NCBI GenBank assembly: GCA_902610905.1
Contig: CACLXS010000001.1
Location: 6,079-70,078, forward strand
Direction: 5' to 3'
DNA from: an uncultured SAR86 cluster bacterium
Lineage (GTDB): Bacteria > Pseudomonadota > Gammaproteobacteria > Magnimaribacterales > D2472
Length of the DNA: 64,000 nt
Numbering within the stretch: the stretch's first letter is position 1; each line of letters begins with the position of its first letter. Below the pieces are notes generated by a model that saw only the letters and a program-made list of their open reading frames with translations, was not told where the DNA came from and did not search any database. Below are positions 833-59,495 of the stretch, piece after piece. The position numbers and the translations under genes are program-made.

Positions 833-1952
833 TCCAAACAAAGTACCTATATCACTTTATATTCATCTACCCTGGTGTGAGAAAAGATGTCCTTACTGTG
901 ACTTCAATATCAATACCAATAAATTAGATGGAGATGAAGAAAGGCTATTGGCTGCTCTTAATCAGGATTTACAAGACTCAATGAAATATATTCAAAAAAG
1001 AAAATTCTGCTCTGTTTACTTTGGGGGCGGAACCCCGTCATTGGTATCTTCAAAGATAATAAAAAGAATTATCAAAAATTTAAACGATATGGGCCATTTA
1101 AAAGAAGAATGTGAAATAAGCTTTGAGTTAAATCCAAAAGAAGTGTCTCACTCTTATTTGAATGAAATTATTGCTGCTGGGGTTAATAGAGTTTCAATAG
1201 GTATACAAAGTTTTGATCAAGGAGTGTTAGATAGCTTAGAAAGAAACCATAGTACTAATGATAGTTACCAAGCAATTAAGATTGCTTCTGAATTTAAAAA
1301 CATCAATATTTCAATTGATTTGATTTATGCAGTTATGAACCAATCAATTGCTTCTCTAAAACAAGATATTGAAATATTCTGCAAAAATAAAATTGATCAC
1401 TTATCTCTTTACCAGCTAACAATTGAACCTAATACAATTTTTTATAAAAAAGAATTAAATATCCCATCTGATAAGACCATAGAGTCAATGGAATTGACTG
1501 CAAAAGATATTCTCAATAAAAATAATATTTTTCAGTATGAGGTTTCATCATGGTCAAAAAATAACAAAGTAAGTAAACATAATATGAATTATTGGCTATA
1601 CGGTGATTATCTTGGTATAGGTCCAGGTGCTCACAGTAAAATTACAACAGAAAATTCAATAACGAGGATGATTAAATTAAAAAAAGTTGGGTCTTATATC
1701 AATAATCCGTCAAAGATAAAAATTATTAAAATAAATGAGTCAACATATGATCTTGATCTTGCAATGAATGTCTTGAGGGTTAAAAGCGGCACTTCGTTTG
1801 AGGATCTTAAAAAAAGAGGTATTTATATATCAGATACTTTTAAAGAAAAATTATGTATAGGCTATAAAAAAGGTTTAATAGAAAAGAATTTAATTAAGGC
1901 AACTAATCAGGGATATAAGTTTCTGAACGACACTGTAAATACTTTTAACTAG
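792..1952 (+). CDS. hemW: Radical SAM heme chaperone HemW / HemN-like (YggW)
   Basis: CEKRCPYCDF radical-SAM CxxxCxxC, YFGGGTPS, 386 aa, positioned after rdgB. TTG starts are possible at 792 or 819. Confidence 0.85.
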   Translation: MLQNHSLKSLKNFNPNKVPISLYIHLPWCEKRCPYCDFNINTNKLDGDEERLLAALNQDLQDSMKYIQKRKFCSVYFGGGTPSLVSSKIIKRIIKNLNDMGHLKEECEISFELNPKEVSHSYLNEIIAAGVNRVSIGIQSFDQGVLDSLERNHSTNDSYQAIKIASEFKNINISIDLIYAVMNQSIASLKQDIEIFCKNKIDHLSLYQLTIEPNTIFYKKELNIPSDKTIESMELTAKDILNKNNIFQYEVSSWSKNNKVSKHNMNYWLYGDYLGIGPGAHSKITTENSITRMIKLKKVGSYINNPSKIKIIKINESTYDLDLAMNVLRVKSGTSFEDLKKRGIYISDTFKEKLCIGYKKGLIEKNLIKATNQGYKFLNDTVNTFN

Positions 1953-2611
1953 GTTTTCTGTAATGAAAAGGGATAAATTTTTCTACCCTCTTCTATAGCC
2001 CTTTGCTGAAACTTAGTTAATGTTATGTTCTCATAAGGGGAAGAGTTTAAAATTTTGAAATCTGAATTTTGATTAATAGATTCATTGATTGATTCTGCAT
2101 AATTTTCCCAATCTGTTGACATAAAAAGATGACCATCTGAATTTAATACTTTATAAATTGAATCTAAAAACTCTGAGTTTATCATTCGTCTTTTGTGGTG
2201 TTTTAACTTGGGCCAAGGATCGGGGCATATTATTAAAACTTCATCAAAGACTGATTCATTAATTTTGTCTATCAATAGTCTTATATCGCCTGTTATTAAT
2301 CTAATATTGGTTAACTCATTAGCATTGATTGCTCCAAGAACTTGGCCAATCCCAGCCATATATACTTCTGAACCTATGTATAAATTTTGCGAATTTTCTT
2401 TAGCTAAGTTTATAAGGTTCTCTCCATTGCCAAAGCCTATTTCTAAAATAATCTTTTTAAAATTGCTTTTGTCGAGAAGTATCTGGGCGTGAGAGGTTAT
2501 ATGATATCTATGTAAAAATTTAAGATTATCTTCTTGGCTTTTAGTTATGCGCCCCTTTCTTTGAACAAAAGATGGCAGAAATTTGTTGCGCATTTGTAAA
2601 TGAAATAACAA
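1949..2611 (-). CDS. trmB: tRNA (guanine46-N7)-methyltransferase
   Basis: EIGFGNGE SAM motif and PDPWPKLKHHKRR signature; 220 aa. Confidence 0.9.
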   Translation of the reverse strand: MLFHLQMRNKFLPSFVQRKGRITKSQEDNLKFLHRYHITSHAQILLDKSNFKKIILEIGFGNGENLINLAKENSQNLYIGSEVYMAGIGQVLGAINANELTNIRLITGDIRLLIDKINESVFDEVLIICPDPWPKLKHHKRRMINSEFLDSIYKVLNSDGHLFMSTDWENYAESINESINQNSDFKILNSSPYENITLTKFQQRAIEEGRKIYPFSLQKT

Positions 2612-2620
2612 TGAATTATA

Positions 2621-3481
2621 TTAAGCAGCACTTACCATTATGGCTTTTAATTTTTTTAATGCTCCGTTTTCGATTTGCCTAATTCTTTCTGCAGAAACTT
2701 CGTACTCTTCAGCTAACTCATGTAATGTTGCTTTATCGTCTGCTAAATATCTTCTTTGAAGAATGTCTTTGCTCCTATCATCTAACATTTTAAGAGCTTC
2801 AACTAATTCACTCTGATTCATATCATCAGCTTCAGCATTTGCAACAATAACCTCAGGATCATATGTTTTGTCTTCAATATATTGCGAAGGTGACATCATT
2901 TCATCATCATCACCAGAAGGAACGGGAGTATCAAATGAAGCATCGTTTGATGAGAGCCTGTTTTCCATGTGAAGAACATCCTTGACTTCTACATTGAGAT
3001 CTTTAGCAATATTTTCTGCTTCTTCTTTAGTAAGCCATTCAAGACTCTTTTTCTTGCCTCTAAGGTTAAAAAATAATTTTCTTTGAGCTTTAGTTGTTGC
3101 TATTTTTACAAGTCTCCAATTCTTAAGAATGTACTCATGTATTTCAGCTTTAATCCAATGAACAGCAAAAGAAACCACTTTTACTCCTCTGTGTGGATCA
3201 TATTTATCAACCGCTTTCATTAGTCCAACATTACCTTCTTGGATAATATCAGCCAAAGGAAGTCCATAACCTTGATATGACCTTGCAATATGAACAACAA
3301 ATCTTAGATGATGAATAACTAACTGTCTTGCAGCATCTAAATCATCTTCTTCATATAGTTTGAGAGCTAATTCCTGCTCTTCTTCTTTAGACAATATAGG
3401 AATTGAATGCACAGAAGCTAAATAGGACTCAATATCCTTGCCAGGACTATTTAACTGAGATGGTTGTAACTGAGTTCCCAT
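2621..3481 (-). CDS. rpoH: RNA polymerase sigma-32 (heat shock sigma factor)
   Basis: Sigma-70 regions 2-4 (QEGNVGLMKAVDKYDP), RpoH box QRKLFFNLR; 286 aa. Confidence 0.93.
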   Translation of the reverse strand: MGTQLQPSQLNSPGKDIESYLASVHSIPILSKEEEQELALKLYEEDDLDAARQLVIHHLRFVVHIARSYQGYGLPLADIIQEGNVGLMKAVDKYDPHRGVKVVSFAVHWIKAEIHEYILKNWRLVKIATTKAQRKLFFNLRGKKKSLEWLTKEEAENIAKDLNVEVKDVLHMENRLSSNDASFDTPVPSGDDDEMMSPSQYIEDKTYDPEVIVANAEADDMNQSELVEALKMLDDRSKDILQRRYLADDKATLHELAEEYEVSAERIRQIENGALKKLKAIMVSAA

Positions 3482-3539
3482 ACTTATTATATATTTTATT
3501 TATAATTAATTATATTATTCATTAATGTTTAATACAAAA

Positions 3540-4352
3540 TTATACCAATTTTTTATAAAACTCGCTCAAAATAGAAAAATATTTGTCTTTTATGGTTTTA
3601 TTTCTAAATGCTACAAAAGCTGGATTTAAGATGCTTTCCTCTTTCGAGTATCTTAGATCTTCAGTATTGGCCATTTGAGAGATACTTCCGCCATATGCAT
3701 GTAATATAGCGTGTCCAGCTGCTATATCCCACTCTGAAGTGGGCCCAAATCTTGGATATATATCAGCTTTATTGTCTGCAAGTGCACACAATTTCAATGA
3801 GCTACCCTTTTCTATTATTTCATAAGAAACGTTTAAACTATTAAGGTAATCAAGAAACATTTTGTCTTTATCTGTCTGATGGCTTTTACTCATTACAATT
3901 CGTAAACTATCTGGTATCGTTTCTTCGATACTATAAATATGAAATTTAGATCCAAGCCAAATTTGACTTGAACTTGGTGCACATATTATTCCAAAAATAG
4001 CTTTCGTTTTTTCTATAAGAGCAATATTTACAGTAAAGTCTTTTGACTTATTTAAGAACTCTCTTGTTCCGTCTAAAGGGTCAACCAACCAATATGGGAT
4101 GCTGGGTATATCTAATTCTTTTTTATAAGTTTCTTCTGAAACTATCGGAATGTTTGGAGTAATTTCTTTAAGCGCGCTGACAATGATGTTATTTGCATTG
4201 TTATCAGCTTCTGTGACAGGAGAACCATCTGATTTTATTTCGCTTTCAAACTCATCTTTTCTATAAACGTCCATAATTGCATTTGCTGCATCTTGCATGG
4301 TTTTTTTTAGTGGCTGGTTTAGGCTTTCTAGAAATTCTGCATCAATTGACAT
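3540..4352 (-). CDS. cysQ: 3'(2'),5'-bisphosphate nucleotidase (inositol monophosphatase family)
   Basis: WLVDPLDGTREF and EWDIAAGHAIL motifs; 270 aa. Confidence 0.8.
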   Translation of the reverse strand: MSIDAEFLESLNQPLKKTMQDAANAIMDVYRKDEFESEIKSDGSPVTEADNNANNIIVSALKEITPNIPIVSEETYKKELDIPSIPYWLVDPLDGTREFLNKSKDFTVNIALIEKTKAIFGIICAPSSSQIWLGSKFHIYSIEETIPDSLRIVMSKSHQTDKDKMFLDYLNSLNVSYEIIEKGSSLKLCALADNKADIYPRFGPTSEWDIAAGHAILHAYGGSISQMANTEDLRYSKEESILNPAFVAFRNKTIKDKYFSILSEFYKKLV

Positions 4353-33792: not shown

Positions 33793-34080
33793 TTAGCTTA
33801 TCAGCTTAGGTATTATTCCTAGTTGAGCAAGAATGCCAAAAATAATTAGCAATATAATACTAGAGATTATTTTAAGATTCTTCTTTAGTATCCATTCAAA
33901 TAATTTATCTATTAATTTTCTTATCAATTTATCTGCTTTATCTATCCATATAACAGCTTTTCTTGTCCATGCGTCAGTCATATCGACTAACATGAGAAAG
34001 ATTACTGCGATAACAACCCACACAAAACCATTAAGAAGCATGTCTATAATCCAGCCTGCTGCTATCCAGTTTATTTCCAT
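33793..34080 (-). CDS. Hypothetical small membrane protein (95 aa)
   Basis: ORF with two or three hydrophobic segments. Confidence 0.4.
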   Translation of the reverse strand: MEINWIAAGWIIDMLLNGFVWVVIAVIFLMLVDMTDAWTRKAVIWIDKADKLIRKLIDKLFEWILKKNLKIISSIILLIIFGILAQLGIIPKLIS

Positions 34081-34144
34081 AATTGGATTATGACATAAGT
34101 TAAATTTGAGTTAGTAAATTCTATTCAACAGTAACAGAGTAGAA

Positions 34145-34324
34145 TTAACCCGACCCTTTTTCATTTTTATCATTTGGTTTTCGCCAACCCAGCGCTGCTC
34201 CAATTGCAACACCTACCGCTATCCAAACTGGTTCATTGGTTGTTGCAAAAACTGCTGCGCCTACCGCTGTACCAACACCAATCCAGTTTCCACCGTTTTT
34301 AGAATTCTTTAATCTGTTATTCAT
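34145..34324 (-). CDS. Hypothetical 59-aa glycine-zipper membrane peptide (below the ORF-track cutoff)
   Basis: Hand-translated as MNNRLKNSKNGGNWIGVGTAVGAAVFATTNEPVWIAVGVAIGAALGWRKPNDKNEKGSG. Contains GxxxG/A repeats and is locally GC-rich. Confidence 0.4.
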   Translation of the reverse strand: MNNRLKNSKNGGNWIGVGTAVGAAVFATTNEPVWIAVGVAIGAALGWRKPNDKNEKGSG

Positions 34325-34341
34325 ATTAAATAAACGCCTTT

Positions 34342-34355
34342 ATCTACTCCGCCGT
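34342..34355 (-). repeat. Degenerate third copy of the glmS 3' end (13/14 nt identical to copy A)
   Basis: ATCTACTCCGCCGT compared with ATCTACTCCACCGT at 35077-35090. On the minus strand it reads ACG GCG GAG TAG, versus glmS ACG GTG GAA TAG. Lies 16 nt after the CPBP stop. Confidence 0.4.
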
Positions 34356-34370
34356 AGCCTAATAAATTTA

Positions 34371-35045
34371 TCATGTTTTTCTGGTGTAGTAGGAAACTGT
34401 TCCAGAATATACATCCATAAATATGTGAGCAATTATAGCCACTACTATACTTTCAAAATATAAATATATTCCACACAGCAAAACGCCTACTAGGGTAGTT
34501 TTAATTACATGTTTCCAACCTAGATAAAGGTGCCAAAGGCCAAAAACAAAACTACTAAAAATAACTGCTATCACCCAATCAGACTGAATTTCTATATAGC
34601 TATAAAGAAACCAGCGAAAAATTAACTCTTCGCATATTCCAGCCGAAACGGATACAAGTAATGTGAATAATAAATATTCTTTATAAGACTGGGGCAATAT
34701 ATCAATTAGCGAATTATCTTTTTCTAAAGTATTTAAAACACTAAGCCTAATATTTTCATTTTTTTTGATAGAGAAAATCACGTATTTGGTATACGCAAAA
34801 CATGCAATAAATATAGATACTGATAAGTAAGTTTTCCAATCAGTTGCTGGCAAAATGGGGGGAGGCTTAACAGTTAATGCGCCTTGAAAAAAACAAAATA
34901 GTAAAAAACCTGTCACAGCCCACAACATTAAAGATGTTTTTATATATTCTGAACTTTTAGTTTTGAATTTATATTTTTCCAAGACTAAATCAGCTACTGG
35001 AAAGAGTAACAATAAAGATAGTAATAAGTACTCCAAAAATTCCAT
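34371..35045 (-). CDS. CPBP family intramembrane glutamic endopeptidase (CAAX protease / Abi-type)
   Basis: ICEELIFRWFLY (EExxxR), FGLWHL and IAHIFMD motifs. Confidence 0.8.
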   Translation of the reverse strand: MEFLEYLLLSLLLLFPVADLVLEKYKFKTKSSEYIKTSLMLWAVTGFLLFCFFQGALTVKPPPILPATDWKTYLSVSIFIACFAYTKYVIFSIKKNENIRLSVLNTLEKDNSLIDILPQSYKEYLLFTLLVSVSAGICEELIFRWFLYSYIEIQSDWVIAVIFSSFVFGLWHLYLGWKHVIKTTLVGVLLCGIYLYFESIVVAIIAHIFMDVYSGTVSYYTRKT

Positions 35046-35077
35046 AAGCTAATTACTCAATTGGAAATGATATCAAA

Positions 35078-35099
35078 TCTACTCCACCGTGACTGACTT
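35078..35099 (-). repeat. Direct repeat copy A: displaced copy of the last 22 nt of glmS, including a stop codon
   Basis: TCTACTCCACCGTGACTGACTT is 21/22 identical to 35537-35558. The minus strand reads AAG TCA GTC ACG GTG GAG TAG (KSVTVE*). Confidence 0.8.
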
Positions 35100-35104
35100 G
35101 AACA

Positions 35105-35116
35105 AAACAGTGATTT
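35105..35116. repeat. Inverted repeat, left arm (AAACAGTGATTT)
   Basis: Exact reverse complement of 35522-35533. Lies 5 nt inside direct repeat copy A. Confidence 0.7.
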
Positions 35117-35131
35117 GATTTCTCTTTCATT

Positions 35132-35506
35132 TCAATCTATTGAAATACCAATTTTTTGTCTTGCTAGTGTGTTATTTTCTTCAGAATCGTTTAAAGACCA
35201 TGACTCATTAAGCATTCTGGTTGAATACTGCTTGTTGTATAAGAAAGGCATTATTAATTGGAATAAACCAAAAGTGACTAAAGAGAAAATCAAATGAAGC
35301 ACGCCAATTAATATTTCACCTCTAAAAATAGGCACAAAAAAACCAAAGAAGAAATAAGTCCATGAATATCCAACAAAACAGTTTTTAAGTATGCCAGATT
35401 CATTGTGTTTTACTTTTATTTTCTTCTGCCATCCCATAACCATGCTGCCAATTATTAATGGTGAAAAAATTATTACTAAAATTATTAATAATATTAATAT
35501 TTCCAT
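35132..35506 (-). CDS. Small membrane protein (124 aa; DUF2628-like core suspected)
   Basis: AGGAG RBS (minus-strand AAAAGGAGAAAATAATG). GYSWTYFFFGFFVPIFRGE...NKQY pattern; 3 TM segments. Confidence 0.6.
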   Translation of the reverse strand: MEILILLIILVIIFSPLIIGSMVMGWQKKIKVKHNESGILKNCFVGYSWTYFFFGFFVPIFRGEILIGVLHLIFSLVTFGLFQLIMPFLYNKQYSTRMLNESWSLNDSEENNTLARQKIGISID

Positions 35507-35521
35507 TATTTTCTCCTTTTT

Positions 35522-35533
35522 AAATCACTGTTT
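35522..35533. repeat. Inverted repeat, right arm (AAATCACTGTTT)
   Basis: Exact reverse complement of 35105-35116. Lies 3 nt inside direct repeat copy B. Confidence 0.7.
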
Positions 35534-35536
35534 CCT

Positions 35537-35558
35537 TCTATTCCACCGTGACTGACTT
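35537..35558 (-). repeat. Direct repeat copy B: the functional glmS 3' end (KSVTVE*)
   Basis: TCTATTCCACCGTGACTGACTT; see copy A. Confidence 0.8.
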
Positions 35559-37364
35559 AGCTAGATTTCTTGGTTGATCTATATCTGTTCCTCTTAAAAG
35601 GGCAACTTCGTATGAAAGAATTTGAAGTGGGATGTTATAAACAATTGGCGTCATAAAGAAATCACATTCAGGCATATGGACTAGTTTTCCAGATTTAACA
35701 TCTATATTTACTGAAGGATCGGCACAAACATAAAGAGTTCCACCTCTTGCTTTCACCTCTTCAAGGTTAGAAATTAATTTCTCTGCTATTTCACTTTCTG
35801 GTGCTAATGCTATAACTGGCATGTTTTCATCTATTAATGCAAGCGGGCCGTGTTTTAGCTCACCAGCAGGGTAAGCTTCAGCATGAATGTATGAAATCTC
35901 TTTGAGTTTTAGTGCGCCCTCTTTGGCAATAGGATAAAAAATACCTCTACCCAAAAATAAAGCATTATTTTTATTGGCAATATTTGGGGCTATCTCAATC
36001 ATTTGATCTTTAGAATTTAAGGCTTCTGCTATAGTCTCAGGCAACAGTCTTAATGCCTGAACAATTCTACCCCTAAGTTTTGGGTTTAGCCCTCTGCTTT
36101 TTGCAAGTGATAATGCAAGTAACATCAATCCTGCCAATTGAGTCGTAAAAGCTTTAGTTGAGGCAACACCTATTTCAGGGCCCGCATTAGTAAATAGTGA
36201 AAAATCCGACTCTCTGGCTAAAGAACTTGTTGGTACGTTGCAAATAGTGAGTGTAGAAAGATACTCTTTTTCTTTTGCATAGTTTAATGCAGCCAGCGTA
36301 TCAGCTGTTTCACCTGATTGAGAGATTGTAATTAATAACGAATTTTCATCTACATGTGGATTTCTGTATCTATACTCACTAGCGTAATCAATCTGGCATG
36401 GGAGTTCTGCTATTGATGAAAACCAATTGGCAGCAACTCTTCCTGCATGCAGGCTTGTTCCACATGCAACTATTTGAATACGTTTTACTCTAGAGAATAA
36501 GTCGGTGGAACCTAGACCAAAAATATTATCTAGAACATCTTCACCACCGATTCTTCCGTCTATTGTTTTTGAAACAGCTTCAGGTTGTTCGTATATTTCT
36601 TTCTCCATATAATGTCTGTAGTCACCTTTTGAAGTTGCTTGAGCTGATATATCTATACAAGTGATTTCTCTTTTAGCTTCAATTTTAGATTCATCAAAAA
36701 TTTTATAGCTATTAGCAGAGATCTCTGCCACATCACCGTCTTCTAAAAATATAAAATCATTGGTGTGTTGAGCTATAGCAAGCGGATCTGAAGCTGCAAA
36801 CATTTCATCGGTTCCTATTCCTATTAATAGAGGTGACTTATTTCTTGCTATAACCAAATTAGTACTATCTTTTATATCAATAGCTGCGATTGCATATGCT
36901 CCTTCAAGTTTTTCTTTTGCTGAATACATTGCATCAATCATTGACTGACCTTGGTTGATATATAGATCAAGCAAATGAGCGATTAGCTCTGAATCTGTTT
37001 GAGATATAAATTCATAACCATCATTCTTAAGATCTTCTCTAAGCTCAACATAATTTTCAATAATGCCATTATGAACGATATAAACTGAATCTTTGGATTT
37101 ATGAGGATGGGCATTAATTTCTGATGGCTCTCCATGTGTTGCCCATCTTGTATGAGCAATACCTAATTTACTTTTTGGTTTTTCAGCAATCATTTTTTCT
37201 TCAAGGAGTTGAACTTTTCCAAGAGTTCTAAGATGAGCTATACCATCATCTTGATGAAGAGCAATGCCTGCTGAGTCATATCCTCTATATTCCATTTTGT
37301 GTAGTCCCTGGACTAAAAGCTTGCCAACATTTCTATTTGAGGCAGCAGCTATAATTCCACACAT
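35538..37364 (-). CDS. glmS: Glutamine--fructose-6-phosphate aminotransferase
   Basis: MCGI N-terminal nucleophile, two SIS domains, C-terminal KSVTVE; 608 aa. Confidence 0.97.
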   Translation of the reverse strand: MCGIIAAASNRNVGKLLVQGLHKMEYRGYDSAGIALHQDDGIAHLRTLGKVQLLEEKMIAEKPKSKLGIAHTRWATHGEPSEINAHPHKSKDSVYIVHNGIIENYVELREDLKNDGYEFISQTDSELIAHLLDLYINQGQSMIDAMYSAKEKLEGAYAIAAIDIKDSTNLVIARNKSPLLIGIGTDEMFAASDPLAIAQHTNDFIFLEDGDVAEISANSYKIFDESKIEAKREITCIDISAQATSKGDYRHYMEKEIYEQPEAVSKTIDGRIGGEDVLDNIFGLGSTDLFSRVKRIQIVACGTSLHAGRVAANWFSSIAELPCQIDYASEYRYRNPHVDENSLLITISQSGETADTLAALNYAKEKEYLSTLTICNVPTSSLARESDFSLFTNAGPEIGVASTKAFTTQLAGLMLLALSLAKSRGLNPKLRGRIVQALRLLPETIAEALNSKDQMIEIAPNIANKNNALFLGRGIFYPIAKEGALKLKEISYIHAEAYPAGELKHGPLALIDENMPVIALAPESEIAEKLISNLEEVKARGGTLYVCADPSVNIDVKSGKLVHMPECDFFMTPIVYNIPLQILSYEVALLRGTDIDQPRNLAKSVTVE

Positions 37365-53356: not shown

Positions 53357-54652
53357 TTGGAATTTTGGAATAAATGCTCGGAGAAACTCGAAAACAAGCT
53401 TTCGCAAGAAGATTTTAACACCTGGATCAGACCCCTTAAAGGCAATTTAAATAAAAATACCCTAGAAATAATTGCTCCTAACGACTTTATTCTCAATTAC
53501 GTAGAAACAAACCTTTCCAATGAAATCATGCAAATGATTAAAGTACAATCAAAAAAGGACATAAGTTTGGTTTTTAAAACATTAACAAAGGAAACATTTG
53601 TTGACAAATATAGTAATGATAAAAAATCTGAAGACACCAAACTGGTCGCCTCTTATGTTTTTGATACCTTTGTTGAGGGTAAATCTAATCATGTGGCCTT
53701 GGCAGCATCTAAACAGGTTGCTCTAAACCCAAAAGGTGATTACAACCCACTATTCATCTATGGTGGTGTTGGCCTTGGTAAAACACACCTAATGCACGCT
53801 GTTGGAAACGAAATCCTTAAAAATGAACCAAACAAAAGAATAGTCTATGTTCACTCAGAAAAATTTGTATCTGATATGGTTAAGGCGCTTCAGCTTGGAG
53901 CTATGAATGAGTTTAAATCTTTTTATAGAAATGCTGACGCCCTTTTAATTGACGACATACAGTTTTTTGCAGGAAAAGAGCAATCTCAAGAAGAATTCTT
54001 TCACACATTTAATGCCCTATTAGACAGAAACAATCAAATGATCCTCACTTGTGACAAATACCCAAAAGAAATAGATGGTTTAGAGGAAAGGCTAAAATCA
54101 AGACTTGGTTGGGGGTTGCCGGTAATTATTGATCCGCCTGAGCTTGAAACAAGAGCCGCTGTACTTCTACAAAAAGCATCTTCAATGGGCGTGTCTCTAC
54201 CAAACGATTGTGCAATATATATTGCACAAAGAATTAGATCAAACATAAGAGAGCTTGAGGGCGCTCTTAAGAGAGTTGTCGCCAATGCAAAGTTTACCAA
54301 CCAGGAAATAGACCTTGCTCTTGTTAAAGACGCACTTAAAGATCTCTTTGTAATTTCTGCAAAAATGGTCAGCATTGAAAATATACAAAAGACAGTGGCT
54401 GAATATTACAACATCAAACTTTCAGACCTTTTGTCTAAAAGGAGAAGTCGCTCTATAACAAGACCAAGACAACTTGCCATGGCCTTAACAAAAGAGCTAA
54501 CAAGACACAGCCTTCCAGAAATAGGCGAAGCTTTTAACGGAAGGGACCACACCACAGTTTTGCATGCGTGCAAAAAAATTGCGGAACTGAGAAAAGAAAG
54601 CCCCTCGCATGAAGAGGATTATAGAAACCTTACAAGAGCACTAACCAACTAA
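53357..54652 (+). CDS. dnaA: Chromosomal replication initiator protein DnaA
   Basis: GGVGLGKTHL Walker A and C-terminal DHTTVLHA DNA-binding motif. TTG start lies 8 nt after AGGAGG; 431 aa. Confidence 0.96.
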   Translation: MEFWNKCSEKLENKLSQEDFNTWIRPLKGNLNKNTLEIIAPNDFILNYVETNLSNEIMQMIKVQSKKDISLVFKTLTKETFVDKYSNDKKSEDTKLVASYVFDTFVEGKSNHVALAASKQVALNPKGDYNPLFIYGGVGLGKTHLMHAVGNEILKNEPNKRIVYVHSEKFVSDMVKALQLGAMNEFKSFYRNADALLIDDIQFFAGKEQSQEEFFHTFNALLDRNNQMILTCDKYPKEIDGLEERLKSRLGWGLPVIIDPPELETRAAVLLQKASSMGVSLPNDCAIYIAQRIRSNIRELEGALKRVVANAKFTNQEIDLALVKDALKDLFVISAKMVSIENIQKTVAEYYNIKLSDLLSKRRSRSITRPRQLAMALTKELTRHSLPEIGEAFNGRDHTTVLHACKKIAELRKESPSHEEDYRNLTRALTN

Positions 54653-54654
54653 AT

Positions 54655-55758
54655 ATGGATTTTTATATTACAAAAGAAGAGATAGCTTCATCTCTTAACG
54701 CAACACTTGGGGTTGTAGAAAAACGTCAAACCCTCCCTATTCTTGCTAACGTTCTTTTTGAGGTTGATGAATCAACCTTAAGACTAACAGCAACGGATTT
54801 AGAATCAGAAATATCAACCATTTCAACAATATCTAATTTTAAAAGTGGAGGAAGAATAACAGCACCAGCAAAAAAACTCAGTGAGCTTTGTAGGTTGTTT
54901 AAAATGGGAGATGAAATTCATTTTTTTCTTGACGGAGACAATCTAAAGATAGAAACAAGCTCCGGCAAATATAATTTATCTACATTGCCAAGTGAAGATT
55001 TTCCTGTTTTTGAAAAAGAAGAGGGCGGAAACACTGTTAACATAACAGGACCAAACCTAAAGGCATTAATATACAAAACATCTTTTGCTATGGGTAATCA
55101 AGATTGGAGACATTATCTAAATGGTTTATATATTTCAGTTGAGGATAACGCTATTACAAGCGTAGCAACGGATGCACATAGATTAGCTTTAGCCACTACA
55201 CCACTAAACGAAGGGGTTTCAGAACAAATTACCGGAATAGTCCCGAGAAAGTCGATCAATGAAATAGGCAAGATTGTAAGCGATAGTAGCGAAAACATTT
55301 TATTACAACTAACGCCGAATTCTATTAATGTTAATGTTGCTGGCACTACTTTTTCTAGTAAATTAATTGAAGGTAAATTCCCAGATTATGAGCAAGTGAT
55401 TCCAAGTGGAGAAAGCTCAACACTTTCAATTAATAAAAAAGACCTCTCAGAAAGTCTTAGTAGAGTAAGTGTGCTTTCTAGTGAAAAATTTAGAGGCGTA
55501 AGGATAATAACATCAGAAAATCAAATCAACATATCTGCAAATAATCCAGAAAAAGAACAAGCAGAAGAAAGTGTTGATTGTTCATATACTGGCGAAAGTA
55601 TAGATATTGCATTTAATGTTAATTACATCCAAGAAATATTATCCTCAATTGATGGTGAAAATGTTGAGGTACATTTTTTTGGTTCTGACAAAAGCTGCCT
55701 CATTACAAACCCTGGCTCTGATGACTTTAAATATGTTGTAATGCCTTTATTAATTTAA
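54655..55758 (+). CDS. dnaN: DNA polymerase III beta sliding clamp
   Basis: 367 aa, conserved N-terminus (LPILANVL) and C-terminal MPLLI. Confidence 0.95.
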   Translation: MDFYITKEEIASSLNATLGVVEKRQTLPILANVLFEVDESTLRLTATDLESEISTISTISNFKSGGRITAPAKKLSELCRLFKMGDEIHFFLDGDNLKIETSSGKYNLSTLPSEDFPVFEKEEGGNTVNITGPNLKALIYKTSFAMGNQDWRHYLNGLYISVEDNAITSVATDAHRLALATTPLNEGVSEQITGIVPRKSINEIGKIVSDSSENILLQLTPNSINVNVAGTTFSSKLIEGKFPDYEQVIPSGESSTLSINKKDLSESLSRVSVLSSEKFRGVRIITSENQINISANNPEKEQAEESVDCSYTGESIDIAFNVNYIQEILSSIDGENVEVHFFGSDKSCLITNPGSDDFKYVVMPLLI

Positions 55759-55795
55759 TTGCTTAAAATTAAATTTCTAGTTTTATTAAACTTAA

Positions 55796-59495
<3,700 letters not shown>

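Follow-up and report, generated by a model that had tools for sequence, protein, structure and literature searches.

Gene cassettes at the 3' end of glmS in the SAR86 cluster: a repeated gene end as the probable mark of site-specific recombination

Introduction

The composite island of the staphylococcal cassette chromosome (SCC) occupies the 3' end of a housekeeping gene close to oriC, with direct and inverted repeats, tandem accretion of elements and recombinase-less members termed pseudo-SCC (PMC6243372). Among the tycheposons of Prochlorococcus, a minority, 27 of 937, encode a large serine recombinase (LSR), in a study that mentions neither glmS nor SAR86 (bioRxiv 10.1101/2020.12.28.424599). 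Here we analyse a stretch of 64,000 nucleotides from an uncultured SAR86 cluster bacterium (contig CACLXS010000001.1), referred to as the window, in which the last 22 nt of glmS occur a second time beyond a gene for a 124-aa membrane protein. The original prediction, made from this DNA alone, was of a one-gene insertion at an attachment site in the end of glmS. We put at roughly 80% the probability that the repeat pair marks a non-autonomous gene cassette, the first of three, placed there by conservative site-specific recombination at the last glmS codons.

Bacteria of the SAR86 cluster are among the most abundant uncultured marine heterotrophs, with streamlined genomes and few recognised mobile elements. 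Full-text literature searches with glmS, SAR86, cassette, serine recombinase and related terms found no description of a glmS cassette system, and the one described here is widespread in SAR86 and apparently undescribed.

The repeated glmS end and the cassette between its copies

The window is a low-GC gammaproteobacterial origin region with the order dnaA-dnaN-recF-gyrB, atp operon, glmU, glmS (the first four names being inferred from order and size only), and its glmS is 81-97% identical to those of genomes labelled SAR86 cluster. The features that concern us first are listed below in the direction of glmS transcription, with L numbers denoting other loci and contigs.

35538-37364, minus strand: glmS (608 aa, from the open reading frame (ORF) listing), ending KSVTVE-stop, its last seven codons being the proposed docking site
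35538-35558, minus strand: core 1 (attL-like), AAG TCAGTCAC followed by GGTGGAATAG
35089-35547, minus strand: cassette 1, the 459-bp mobile unit, 97-100% identical in L173, L174, L176-L180, L182 and L183, where the flanks differ
35522-35537, minus strand: left inverted repeat (IR-L) of cassette 1, aaggaaacagtgattt
35132-35506, minus strand: cargo gene of cassette 1 (ORF listing), encoding a 124-aa predicted membrane protein
35100-35116, minus strand: right inverted repeat (IR-R) of cassette 1, aaatcactgttttgttc, the same end being present in L082-L085
35079-35099, minus strand: core 2, AAG TCAGTCAC followed by GGTGGAGTAG, the left half from cassette 1 and the right half from cassette 2

The 22-mer TCTAYTCCACCGTGACTGACTT is present in exactly two copies (35078-35099 and 35537-35558), as first reported, with no further copy in the 64 kb at up to three mismatches. 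On the minus strand both read AAG TCA GTC ACG GTG GAR TAG, and the copy at 35538-35558 is the genuine end of the 608-aa ORF. We also recover the exact 12-nt inverted repeat inside the copies (35105-35116 and 35522-35533). In line with the earlier statement that the arrangement is not expected by chance, the 22-mer arose in none of 100 shuffles; the 12-mer alone is unremarkable (1.3 matches expected at one mismatch or fewer). This inverted repeat lengthens to 22 nt with 82% complementarity, and dozens of other cassettes have their terminal repeats in the register that it occupies.

Between the repeats is a single ORF, that of the 124-aa protein, with AAAAAGGAG ahead of it as a good ribosome-binding site, in agreement with the original prediction. 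The protein has no match in Pfam or NCBIfam; 950 metagenomic homologues were found, and the exact protein is indexed in 180 blocks of public assemblies. Cassette 1 runs from its right half-core through IR-L, the ribosome-binding site, the ORF, IR-R and AAG to its left half-core TCAGTCAC. The left 11 nt of core 1 are native glmS, and the right 10 nt (from 35547 down) are contributed by the cassette.

Cassette arrays downstream of SAR86 glmS

We collected 80 glmS loci, about 40 of them from SAR86, and searched for cores with the codon-degenerate glmS end TCN GTN ACN GTN GAR TRR, allowing at most two mismatches. Downstream of glmS (190 kb searched) the motif has 102 matches on the glmS strand and two on the other, against eight upstream (285 kb). 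The upstream matches were considered as real sites and rejected, being two homologous chance sites within the glmS ORF that lack arms. At least two cores, and at most nine, are present in 31 of the 34 SAR86 loci that have more than 1 kb of downstream sequence; in these 31, glmS is followed by one to eight cassettes, all in one orientation and separated by cores with the consensus xAxTCNGTNACNGTNGARTAR. Cores are spaced from 89 to about 3100 bp apart, mostly 200-1000 bp, and the intervals mostly contain one small ORF (median 124 aa). The ORFs within arrays are co-oriented with glmS in 118 of 149 cases and opposite in 31; over 40 loci they form 115 protein clusters of diverse function, and in almost every genome a different set of genes follows glmS. 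The 124-aa gene adjoins glmS in none of the collected reference loci.

Applied to the window, the site model from other genomes finds only three cores in 64 kb, together with one decayed half-core that separates the CPBP-protease gene from the 59-aa gene. The supposed one-gene insertion is in fact a three-cassette array, with a third core at 34121-34141 and the half-core at 34344-34355, in the order glmS, 124-aa cassette, CPBP cassette, 59-aa cassette, core 3 and a 95-aa flank gene. The remaining parts are as follows.

34356-35088, minus strand: cassette 2, with a gene for a CPBP/Rce1-like intramembrane protease (ORF 34371-35045) and weak terminal repeats
34344-34355, minus strand: decayed junction, with the right half-core ACGGCGGAGTAG only, then the cassette 3 IR-L ataaaggcgt
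34142-34343, minus strand: cassette 3, with a gene for a 59-aa glycine-rich small protein (ORF 34145-34324); a stand-alone cassette in L006 and L029
34121-34141, minus strand: core 3, the distal array end, TAC TCTGTTAC followed by TGTTGAATAG; identity with L178 stops right after its AC
33793-34080, minus strand: 95-aa gene just past the array, with homologues after the array in L001, L002, L004, L005, L007 and L034

The decayed junction gives a weak nhmmer match (34327-34370, E 0.21), and its intact counterpart in L182 reads GGCGGAGTAG ataaaggtgtc. A homologue of the 95-aa gene in L033 sits between two cores. The array (34121-35558) is origin-proximal, only ~18 kb from dnaA-dnaN-recF-gyrB (window 53357-58794), a position that may offer high gene dosage or may, by analogy, share the safe-harbour logic of SCCmec at orfX, near oriC.

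Dyad symmetry of the cassette ends

Across the arrays IR-L occupies roughly 16-19 nt after a core, and is the reverse complement of IR-R, which occupies roughly 16-19 nt and stops 3 nt short of the next core. Within a single cassette the ends are complementary at a mean of 11.2 of 20 positions, compared with 8.8 for ends facing each other across a core and 8.8 for random pairs. Several arm families can be distinguished (tttgaacagtgattt, tttgaacagagaatt, tttcgtttgcagaatt, ataaaggtgtctactt and others), and left and right arms change together. When the ends of each cassette were joined in silico to give a 61-nt junction, 65.8% of positions in the junctions of 99 cassettes were dyad-paired as against 49.7% after shuffling, with none of 500 shuffles as high; the covariation score of these junctions was 0.448 versus 0.209, and the signal was confined to register 0. 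The dyad axis falls between columns 30 and 31, which are the A and C of the Thr codon (ACN), both near-invariant. We also considered the small-cassette arms as attB-type half-sites shifted by 5 nt and rejected this, since the cross-correlation of the position frequency matrices of small cassettes and LSR sites peaks at shift 0 (0.365; 0.327 at +5).

The position of exchange

The bases that vary within 100 internal cores divide at the AC of the Thr codon. Those to its left (the three bases before TCN and the wobble positions of Ser and the first Val) are linked in their variation to the left flank (z 7.5-10) but not to the right, whereas the wobble positions of the second Val, Glu and the stop codon co-vary with the right flank (z 4-9) and not the left; two positions ahead of TCN, A is present in 99 of the 100 sites. 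In keeping with this division, the 124-aa gene is accompanied by GGTGGAATAG plus IR-L on one side and by IR-R plus AAG TCAGTCAC on the other, and the complementary half-cores follow the neighbours. The single GAA/GAG difference between the two copies in the window, to which the original prediction drew attention, is present; it is not a later mutation, the right half-core GGTGGAATAG moving with the 124-aa cassette in every other genome.

Contig L178 shows the same boundary over a longer distance. Its glmS is 73% identical to that of the window, with the last mismatch at core position 6, and from the AC onward the two are about 99% identical over 1417 bp, through all three cassettes; identity ends directly after the AC of core 3, where the first mismatch is at position 9. 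The break in identity at core 1 thus lies between core positions 6 and 9. As read from these alignments, exchange is confined to the dinucleotide AC, and the partners need no match on either side. Serine recombinases make a 2-bp staggered cut, and tyrosine recombinases use an overlap of 6-8 bp. Exchange at AC only, between mismatched flanks, is the behaviour of serine recombinases, and its confinement to AC also excludes a target-site duplication.

A transposon, or an element resembling a miniature inverted-repeat transposable element, that has terminal inverted repeats and duplicates a preferred 21-bp target, with Tn7-like targeting of glmS included, would account for the succession of direct repeat, inverted repeat, cargo, inverted repeat and direct repeat, and glmS is the classical target of Tn7. 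The copies are not duplicates, however: the left half-core follows the left flank and the right half-core the right flank, so that what had been taken for a duplicated target is a pair of hybrid recombination cores with the crossover at the central AC. A 21-bp duplication would also be far beyond known transposases. Tn7 itself inserts ~25 bp beyond the stop codon, duplicates 5 bp and depends on TnsABCD, none of which is seen here, and the distinction from Tn7 drawn at the outset is upheld, given a junction inside the last codons, a 21-nt hybrid core and no Tns genes seen. The transposon explanation is already contradicted by the linkage data, and we give it almost no credence.

The same evidence bears on the view that the repeats are a fixed motif with a role of its own (as terminator, processing site or translational coupling signal, for instance), around which gene content varies through ordinary homologous recombination. 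Cores do stand between co-oriented genes, and short repeats could seed illegitimate or homologous exchange. But we found no terminator-like structure and no Rfam match; exchange at one dinucleotide flanked by mismatches is unlike RecA-dependent exchange; the complementarity is within each cassette's own ends rather than between neighbouring ends; and the joined site is found on free circular elements (described below). A fixed motif therefore seems to us very improbable, and we retain site-specific recombination as the explanation of the cores.

Movement of cassettes between genomes

The 459-bp cassette is found as the first, second, third or sixth member of an array, with at least five different left and at least six different right neighbours among the retrieved contigs, and its hosts have glmS genes 73-84% identical, save for one near-clonal contig. 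That it is a mobile, site-specifically integrated unit, as was first proposed, is well supported by its 97-100% identity at these varied ranks and among these neighbours, and it is in this changing context that the proposed search for bracketed homologues recovered it. Distant versions of the 124-aa protein in L081-L085 (80-82% amino-acid identity) retain the same IR-R. Other cassettes behave likewise: 18 cassette pairs are common between reference genomes, 17 of them at different array rank, and of the 17 shared cassettes for which glmS could be compared, ten are at least five points more similar than glmS is (for example, 98.9% against 75.8%). Cassettes other than that of the 124-aa gene are 92-99% identical between genomes whose glmS genes are 74-76% identical.

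The search for an empty site succeeded in part. A site empty for exactly the 124-aa cassette, with glmS leading directly to the CPBP cassette, was not found among the retrieved contigs, and mobility of this cassette is accordingly argued from its change of neighbours. A 2060-bp cassette between two cores forms a clean occupied and empty pair in L031 and L032, and relatives do differ by presence and absence of cassettes. At the level of sequence, these comparisons establish horizontal movement both of single cassettes and of the three-cassette block.

Recombinase-bearing elements with the same architecture

Homologues of the 124-aa protein led to a 275-kb contig (L081), whose GlmS protein is 92% identical to that of the window. 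Its glmS is followed by an 8.2-kb unit of the same architecture, namely core, IR-L tcgaagagggtgtagttt, cargo, IR-R aaactacaccctcttaga and core, of which the last two genes encode a 194-aa resolvase/invertase-type protein and a 571-aa LSR with Resolvase, Recombinase and Zn_ribbon_recom domains (PF00239, PF07508, PF13408). The enzyme belongs to a small marine clade with eight close cluster representatives. The nucleophilic-serine motif YxRVS is conserved (Y[ILV]RVS in seven of eight aligned members, the eighth being a truncated gene call), and residues 175-428 align to the C-terminal structures of A118 integrase 4KIS and 6DNW (E 1e-6), 4KIS being the closest solved structure. Among NCBIfam models XisF is the best match, below its cut-off, followed by CcrB at 57 bits (cut-off 900) and CcrA at 46 bits (cut-off 700). 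The clade has the features that characterise an LSR, namely the catalytic domain, the Recombinase domain and zinc ribbon, and an imperfect dyad site around a 2-bp non-palindromic centre (roughly 60 bp here, about 50 bp for the attP of an LSR); catalysis between attP and attB is putative.

Each LSR of the clade is preceded by a small recombinase of 194-203 aa, of resolvase/invertase type with a helix-turn-helix (for example, L081:7125-7709 and L086:4574-5185), which resembles Gin and gamma-delta resolvase. Where coordinates were seen, the two genes abut or overlap: the overlap is 8 nt in L081 and L092-L096, and they are 1 nt apart in L086-L089 and 104 nt apart in L097. The small protein could be a partner enzyme or a directionality factor.

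We assembled 73 metagenomic LSR loci, about 63 of which include the 3' end of the LSR gene, and in about 52 of these a core like the glmS end lies 35-83 bp past the LSR stop codon. Two states can be recognised. In the integrated state, represented by a family of 89% identity (L098-L107), the left side is constant, gaaactacacccccttggaa CAT TCAGTCAC, and is joined to varying right half-cores and ten right flanks; in L098 glmS is directly upstream of the LSR element. In the joined state there is one core per contig and its two flanks are reverse complements (15-18 of 20 positions). In 20 distinct joined LSR sites 86% of positions are dyad-paired, compared with 65% after shuffling; only register 0 works, 13 of 19 pairs are compensatory, and the axis lies between invariant A30 and C31. 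The right half-core of these sites is invariant at AC-GT-GA-TA and the left half is looser, as expected if only the right half must rebuild glmS. The earlier suggestion that the 3' end of glmS is regenerated agrees with this, ACN GTN GAR TAR being invariant in the sites of the free recombinase elements. Terminal direct overlaps indicate that L121 (5007 bp, overlap of 78 nt), L123 (4931 bp, 47 nt) and L153 (5221 bp, 99 nt) assemble as circles.

LSR elements also adjoin glmS in a more divergent SAR86-like lineage (L104) and in a gammaproteobacterium outside SAR86 (L141), whose glmS is 57-59% identical to those of metagenome-assembled genomes (MAGs) of the Methylococcaceae/Thiohalobacter type; in L127, L139, L154 and L158 LSR elements adjoining the glmS end are reversed in orientation. 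In one arm family, ttttgtatgtaacag, the recombinase-less cassettes of L004 and L038 (and the start of that of L002) match the arms of the LSR elements of L131, L141 and L164. A viral origin of these enzymes was considered and set aside: the LSR clade has no member in IMG/VR viral contigs, no joined site with the common arms was found in viral contigs, and PHROGs searches of L086 gave no virion genes.

These elements also bear on two explanations that invoke tyrosine recombinases. The first is that the arrays are of integron type, mobilised by an IntI-like integrase acting on folded single-stranded hairpins (attC-like), and thus equivalent to clusters of attC sites lacking integron-integrases (CALIN). 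The contents of the arrays, mostly single ORFs with 118 of 149 co-oriented with glmS, the retention of site symmetry while the sequence varies, and the absence of a recombinase from the arrays themselves (among the families listed) would all fit. We nevertheless consider it highly unlikely: the crossover is at the palindrome centre, the would-be hairpin loop, whereas that of integrons is in an arm, at the G/TT of R'; the integrated cassette has part of the site at either end; neither the window nor the sequence adjoining glmS in any locus contains an intI-like gene; the recombinases of elements with identical architecture are of the serine, not the tyrosine, type; and 2 bp of identity suffices for exchange. 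A hairpin reading of the inverted repeats was rejected for the same reason of geometry, the crossover not being in the stem.

The second is that the host XerC/XerD enzymes move the cassettes, as they do integrative mobile elements exploiting Xer (IMEX) or the pdif modules of Acinetobacter plasmids, which would suit cassettes without a recombinase of their own; the arm CTGTTYRAA is also faintly like the XerD arm of dif. The core, though, lacks the 11-6-11 layout of dif, its arms being 22 nt apart around the exchange point; pdif modules alternate in orientation, whereas every core here points one way; and the autonomous versions encode serine recombinases. We regard a role of Xer in cassette movement as very improbable, and return to an LSR as the candidate enzyme.

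A proposed mechanism and the points against it

In the mechanism that we favour, a free cassette would be a circle whose ends are joined as a dyad of roughly 60 bp, consisting of IR-R, xAx TCN GTN AC/N GTN GAR TAR (the stroke marking the exchange) and IR-L; the predicted circular junction of the 124-aa cassette is AAATCACTGTTTTGTTC AAG TCAGTCAC GGTGGAATAG AAGGAAACAGTGATTT. A recombinase would swap strands at the central AC (bases one and two of the Thr codon), its partner being the AC of the glmS end or of any array core. The incoming right half-core would provide Thr-Val-Glu-stop and leave GlmS intact, and the earlier end would be displaced downstream, so building arrays. Cargo genes are probably expressed by read-through from the glmUS operon, as most are co-oriented with glmS and there is no terminator between glmS and the first cassette; promoter-like sites there were not above chance. 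The enzyme is proposed to be an LSR, paired with the small serine recombinase of roughly 195 aa, carried on larger autonomous elements in other SAR86 cells and on roughly 5-kb circles, and acting in trans on recombinase-less cassettes. An LSR of this clade most likely moves the small cassettes in trans, in the way that SCC elements work on pseudo-SCC, and a circular intermediate of the small cassettes is likewise proposed; the arrays, the dyad sites, the position of crossover, and LSR elements and circles bearing the same site are seen in the sequences compared. Mobilisation in trans, one of two options first offered, gains support from the LSRs of same-architecture elements elsewhere, such an LSR being the candidate enzyme for the small cassettes.

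Several points weigh against this mechanism. Some cassettes, cassette 2 of the window included, have weak terminal repeats. Searches of the window found no recombinase, as had been stated from the outset, and no Xer- or integrase-like match to an XerD query; nor did a recombinase appear at up to 6 kb from glmS in the 39 reference SAR86 loci, among the top 25 families listed, or in the arrays, among the top 25 of 53 Pfam families matched by 40 representative ORFs of at least 150 aa. The commonest small-cassette arms, aaatcactgttyraay, which include those of the 124-aa cassette, differ from every LSR element found and often lack C11, C15 or both, which are invariant in LSR sites; none of the LSRs found can thus be assigned as the cognate enzyme of this arm family. 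No small circle without a recombinase was observed. Finally, canonical LSRs recombine only attP with attB, and excision needs a directionality factor, so that array growth and multi-cassette excision imply either looser site choice, as in Ccr, or a role for the small recombinase.

A broader proposal, which we advance tentatively and judge as a whole to fall slightly short of even odds, is that SAR86 holds a serine-recombinase counterpart of the integron, with a capture platform at the glmS end, circulating cassettes and a requirement for a 2-bp match. Hundreds of different promoterless one-gene cassettes would be stacked at the glmS end and expressed from there, each with a site that is defined by symmetry, variable in sequence and also encodes Thr-Val-Glu-stop. 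Cassettes and multi-cassette blocks would pass as circles between deeply divergent SAR86 lineages, and the recombinase would read only the non-wobble bases of the glmS codons. If this were so, the arrays would be a main channel through which flexible genes flow in a heterotroph that is among the most abundant in the ocean.

Other observations on cargo and related repeats

Several features of individual arrays deserve mention in their own right. A recurrent unit starting rGAAAGrTTTCYYGGTTGr follows cores ending GAATAA, often but not always at the distal array end (L001:7828-7850; L002:6889; L005:8886; L007:9021; L025:9937; L038:7828; L069:10108; L102:482 and 12388); the choice lies between a cassette of very frequent occurrence and the ancestral sequence beyond glmS. 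Several cassettes open with a conserved non-coding stretch, ttttaacctcgcattctgcgggagttt (L010:8095; L015:7828; L017:8366; L034:8429; L036:9054; L021:9417; L023:9125), and a second, atttaacccaactctgcaat.agtggtgagtgatcgct, opens cassettes in L018, L028 and L047. An Rfam scan of the window and six loci, aimed at recurrent non-coding cassette units, gave no matches, and these two stretches may be cargo in the form of small RNAs or regulatory elements.

An HNH-type cassette ORF in L033 (3903-4658) reads into the next core and ends …NNSVTVE-stop, using the core's own Ser-Val-Thr-Val-Glu codons and stop codon. Cargo of defence type is present at L183:265-3399, L019:7831-8808, L025:7859-8467 and L047:8934-9431, the kinds represented being an Eco57I-like type IIG restriction-modification enzyme, an HNH-HIT fusion, a T5orf172/GIY-YIG-like protein and a C5-methylase fragment; the arrays may also serve as defence islands. 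The recombinase element of L081 contains a metal-resistance-like module at 1939-3576 (Trns_repr_metal, a MerT-like protein and an HMA-domain protein), and a copy of its Trns_repr_metal gene region, 81% identical, lies two cores past the 124-aa cassette in a single-amplified-genome contig (L179:6796-7056). In the element at L141:3217-8806 the distal core is followed by the same IR-L again (ttttgtttgtaacagtttta), which suggests either tandem duplication or a mixture of integrated and circular forms in the assembly.

Outside these lineages, a Candidatus Beckwithbacteria MAG of the candidate phyla radiation has its glmS end repeated 787 bp downstream (L076:5112-5132 and L076:5899-5919). The direct repeat is about 55 bp, gacaagcccagaaacttagcc AAATCCGTSACSGTGAAATAG aacaatttttatt, with an inverted repeat, cctacaaggacag / ctgtccttgtagg, just inside, and may represent an independent integration system at the glmS end.

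Significance and comparison with known systems

If the mechanism proposed is correct, it would account concretely for much of the strain-level gene content of SAR86 and give that content an exact address. The cargo pool is large, with 115 protein clusters in only 40 loci, including HNH, T5orf172 and a type IIG restriction-modification gene. The site would be doubly constrained, by protein recognition and by the rebuilding of an essential gene's last codons, leaving only wobble bases free. The enzyme clade could be useful as an integration tool, given a KSVTVE-stop target that is universal and highly conserved in bacteria and a compact site of roughly 60 bp.

Some resemblances are limited. With Tn7 the sole shared feature is the use of the conserved glmS 3' end as a safe docking site; Tn7 transposes, with its own insertion point, duplication and Tns proteins as set out above. 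With the LSRs of phages and excision elements (A118 integrase, XisF) the new clade shares the Resolvase, Recombinase and zinc-ribbon set, and its dyad site fits attP logic, but it is always accompanied by a small serine recombinase, has no members in IMG/VR, and hybrid sites within arrays appear to be the partners with which its sites recombine. Tycheposons (bioRxiv 10.1101/2020.12.28.424599) likewise have streamlined marine hosts, use site-specific integrases that leave partial copies of the target, and shift older elements inwards by repeated integration at one site; they differ in targeting tRNA genes, in relying mostly on tyrosine recombinases and in their multi-kilobase size with replication modules.

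The integron offers a closer likeness in organisation: arrays of small, mostly one-gene, co-oriented cassettes, each with its own imperfect palindrome whose symmetry is kept, and a highly diverse cargo. Yet every defining molecular feature of the integron fails here. There is no tyrosine integrase, and glmU-glmS stands upstream in place of intI; the arms are not, by inspection, RYYYAAC/GTTRRRY, and the crossover is at the central AC instead of the G/TT of R'; the site is split over both cassette ends; and an essential gene's coding end serves as the platform, so that a cassette must encode Thr-Val-Glu-stop.

The composite island of SCC/SCCmec at rlmH (orfX) in Staphylococcus is best regarded as the closest working analogue, rather than as a member of the same class. 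Both systems integrate at a conserved housekeeping gene in the vicinity of oriC, into its 3' end, which the element restores, and both have direct repeats with terminal inverted repeats, tandem build-up, and recombinase-less beside recombinase-bearing members. Ccr enzymes are large serine recombinases. The target here, however, is the glmS 3' end rather than rlmH, homology to Ccr is only distant (CcrB at 57 bits against a cut-off of 900 and CcrA at 46 bits against 700), the gene pair is a small plus a large serine recombinase rather than CcrA/CcrB, and the host is a streamlined marine gammaproteobacterium; the units are mostly single genes of 0.2-1 kb, with up to eight in 6 kb, and SCC islands are 20-60 kb. 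By these analogies, the glmS system of SAR86 is best described as LSR site-specific integration with SCC-like accretion and integron-like cassette arrays, in which a serine recombinase would bridge the SCCmec and integron paradigms.

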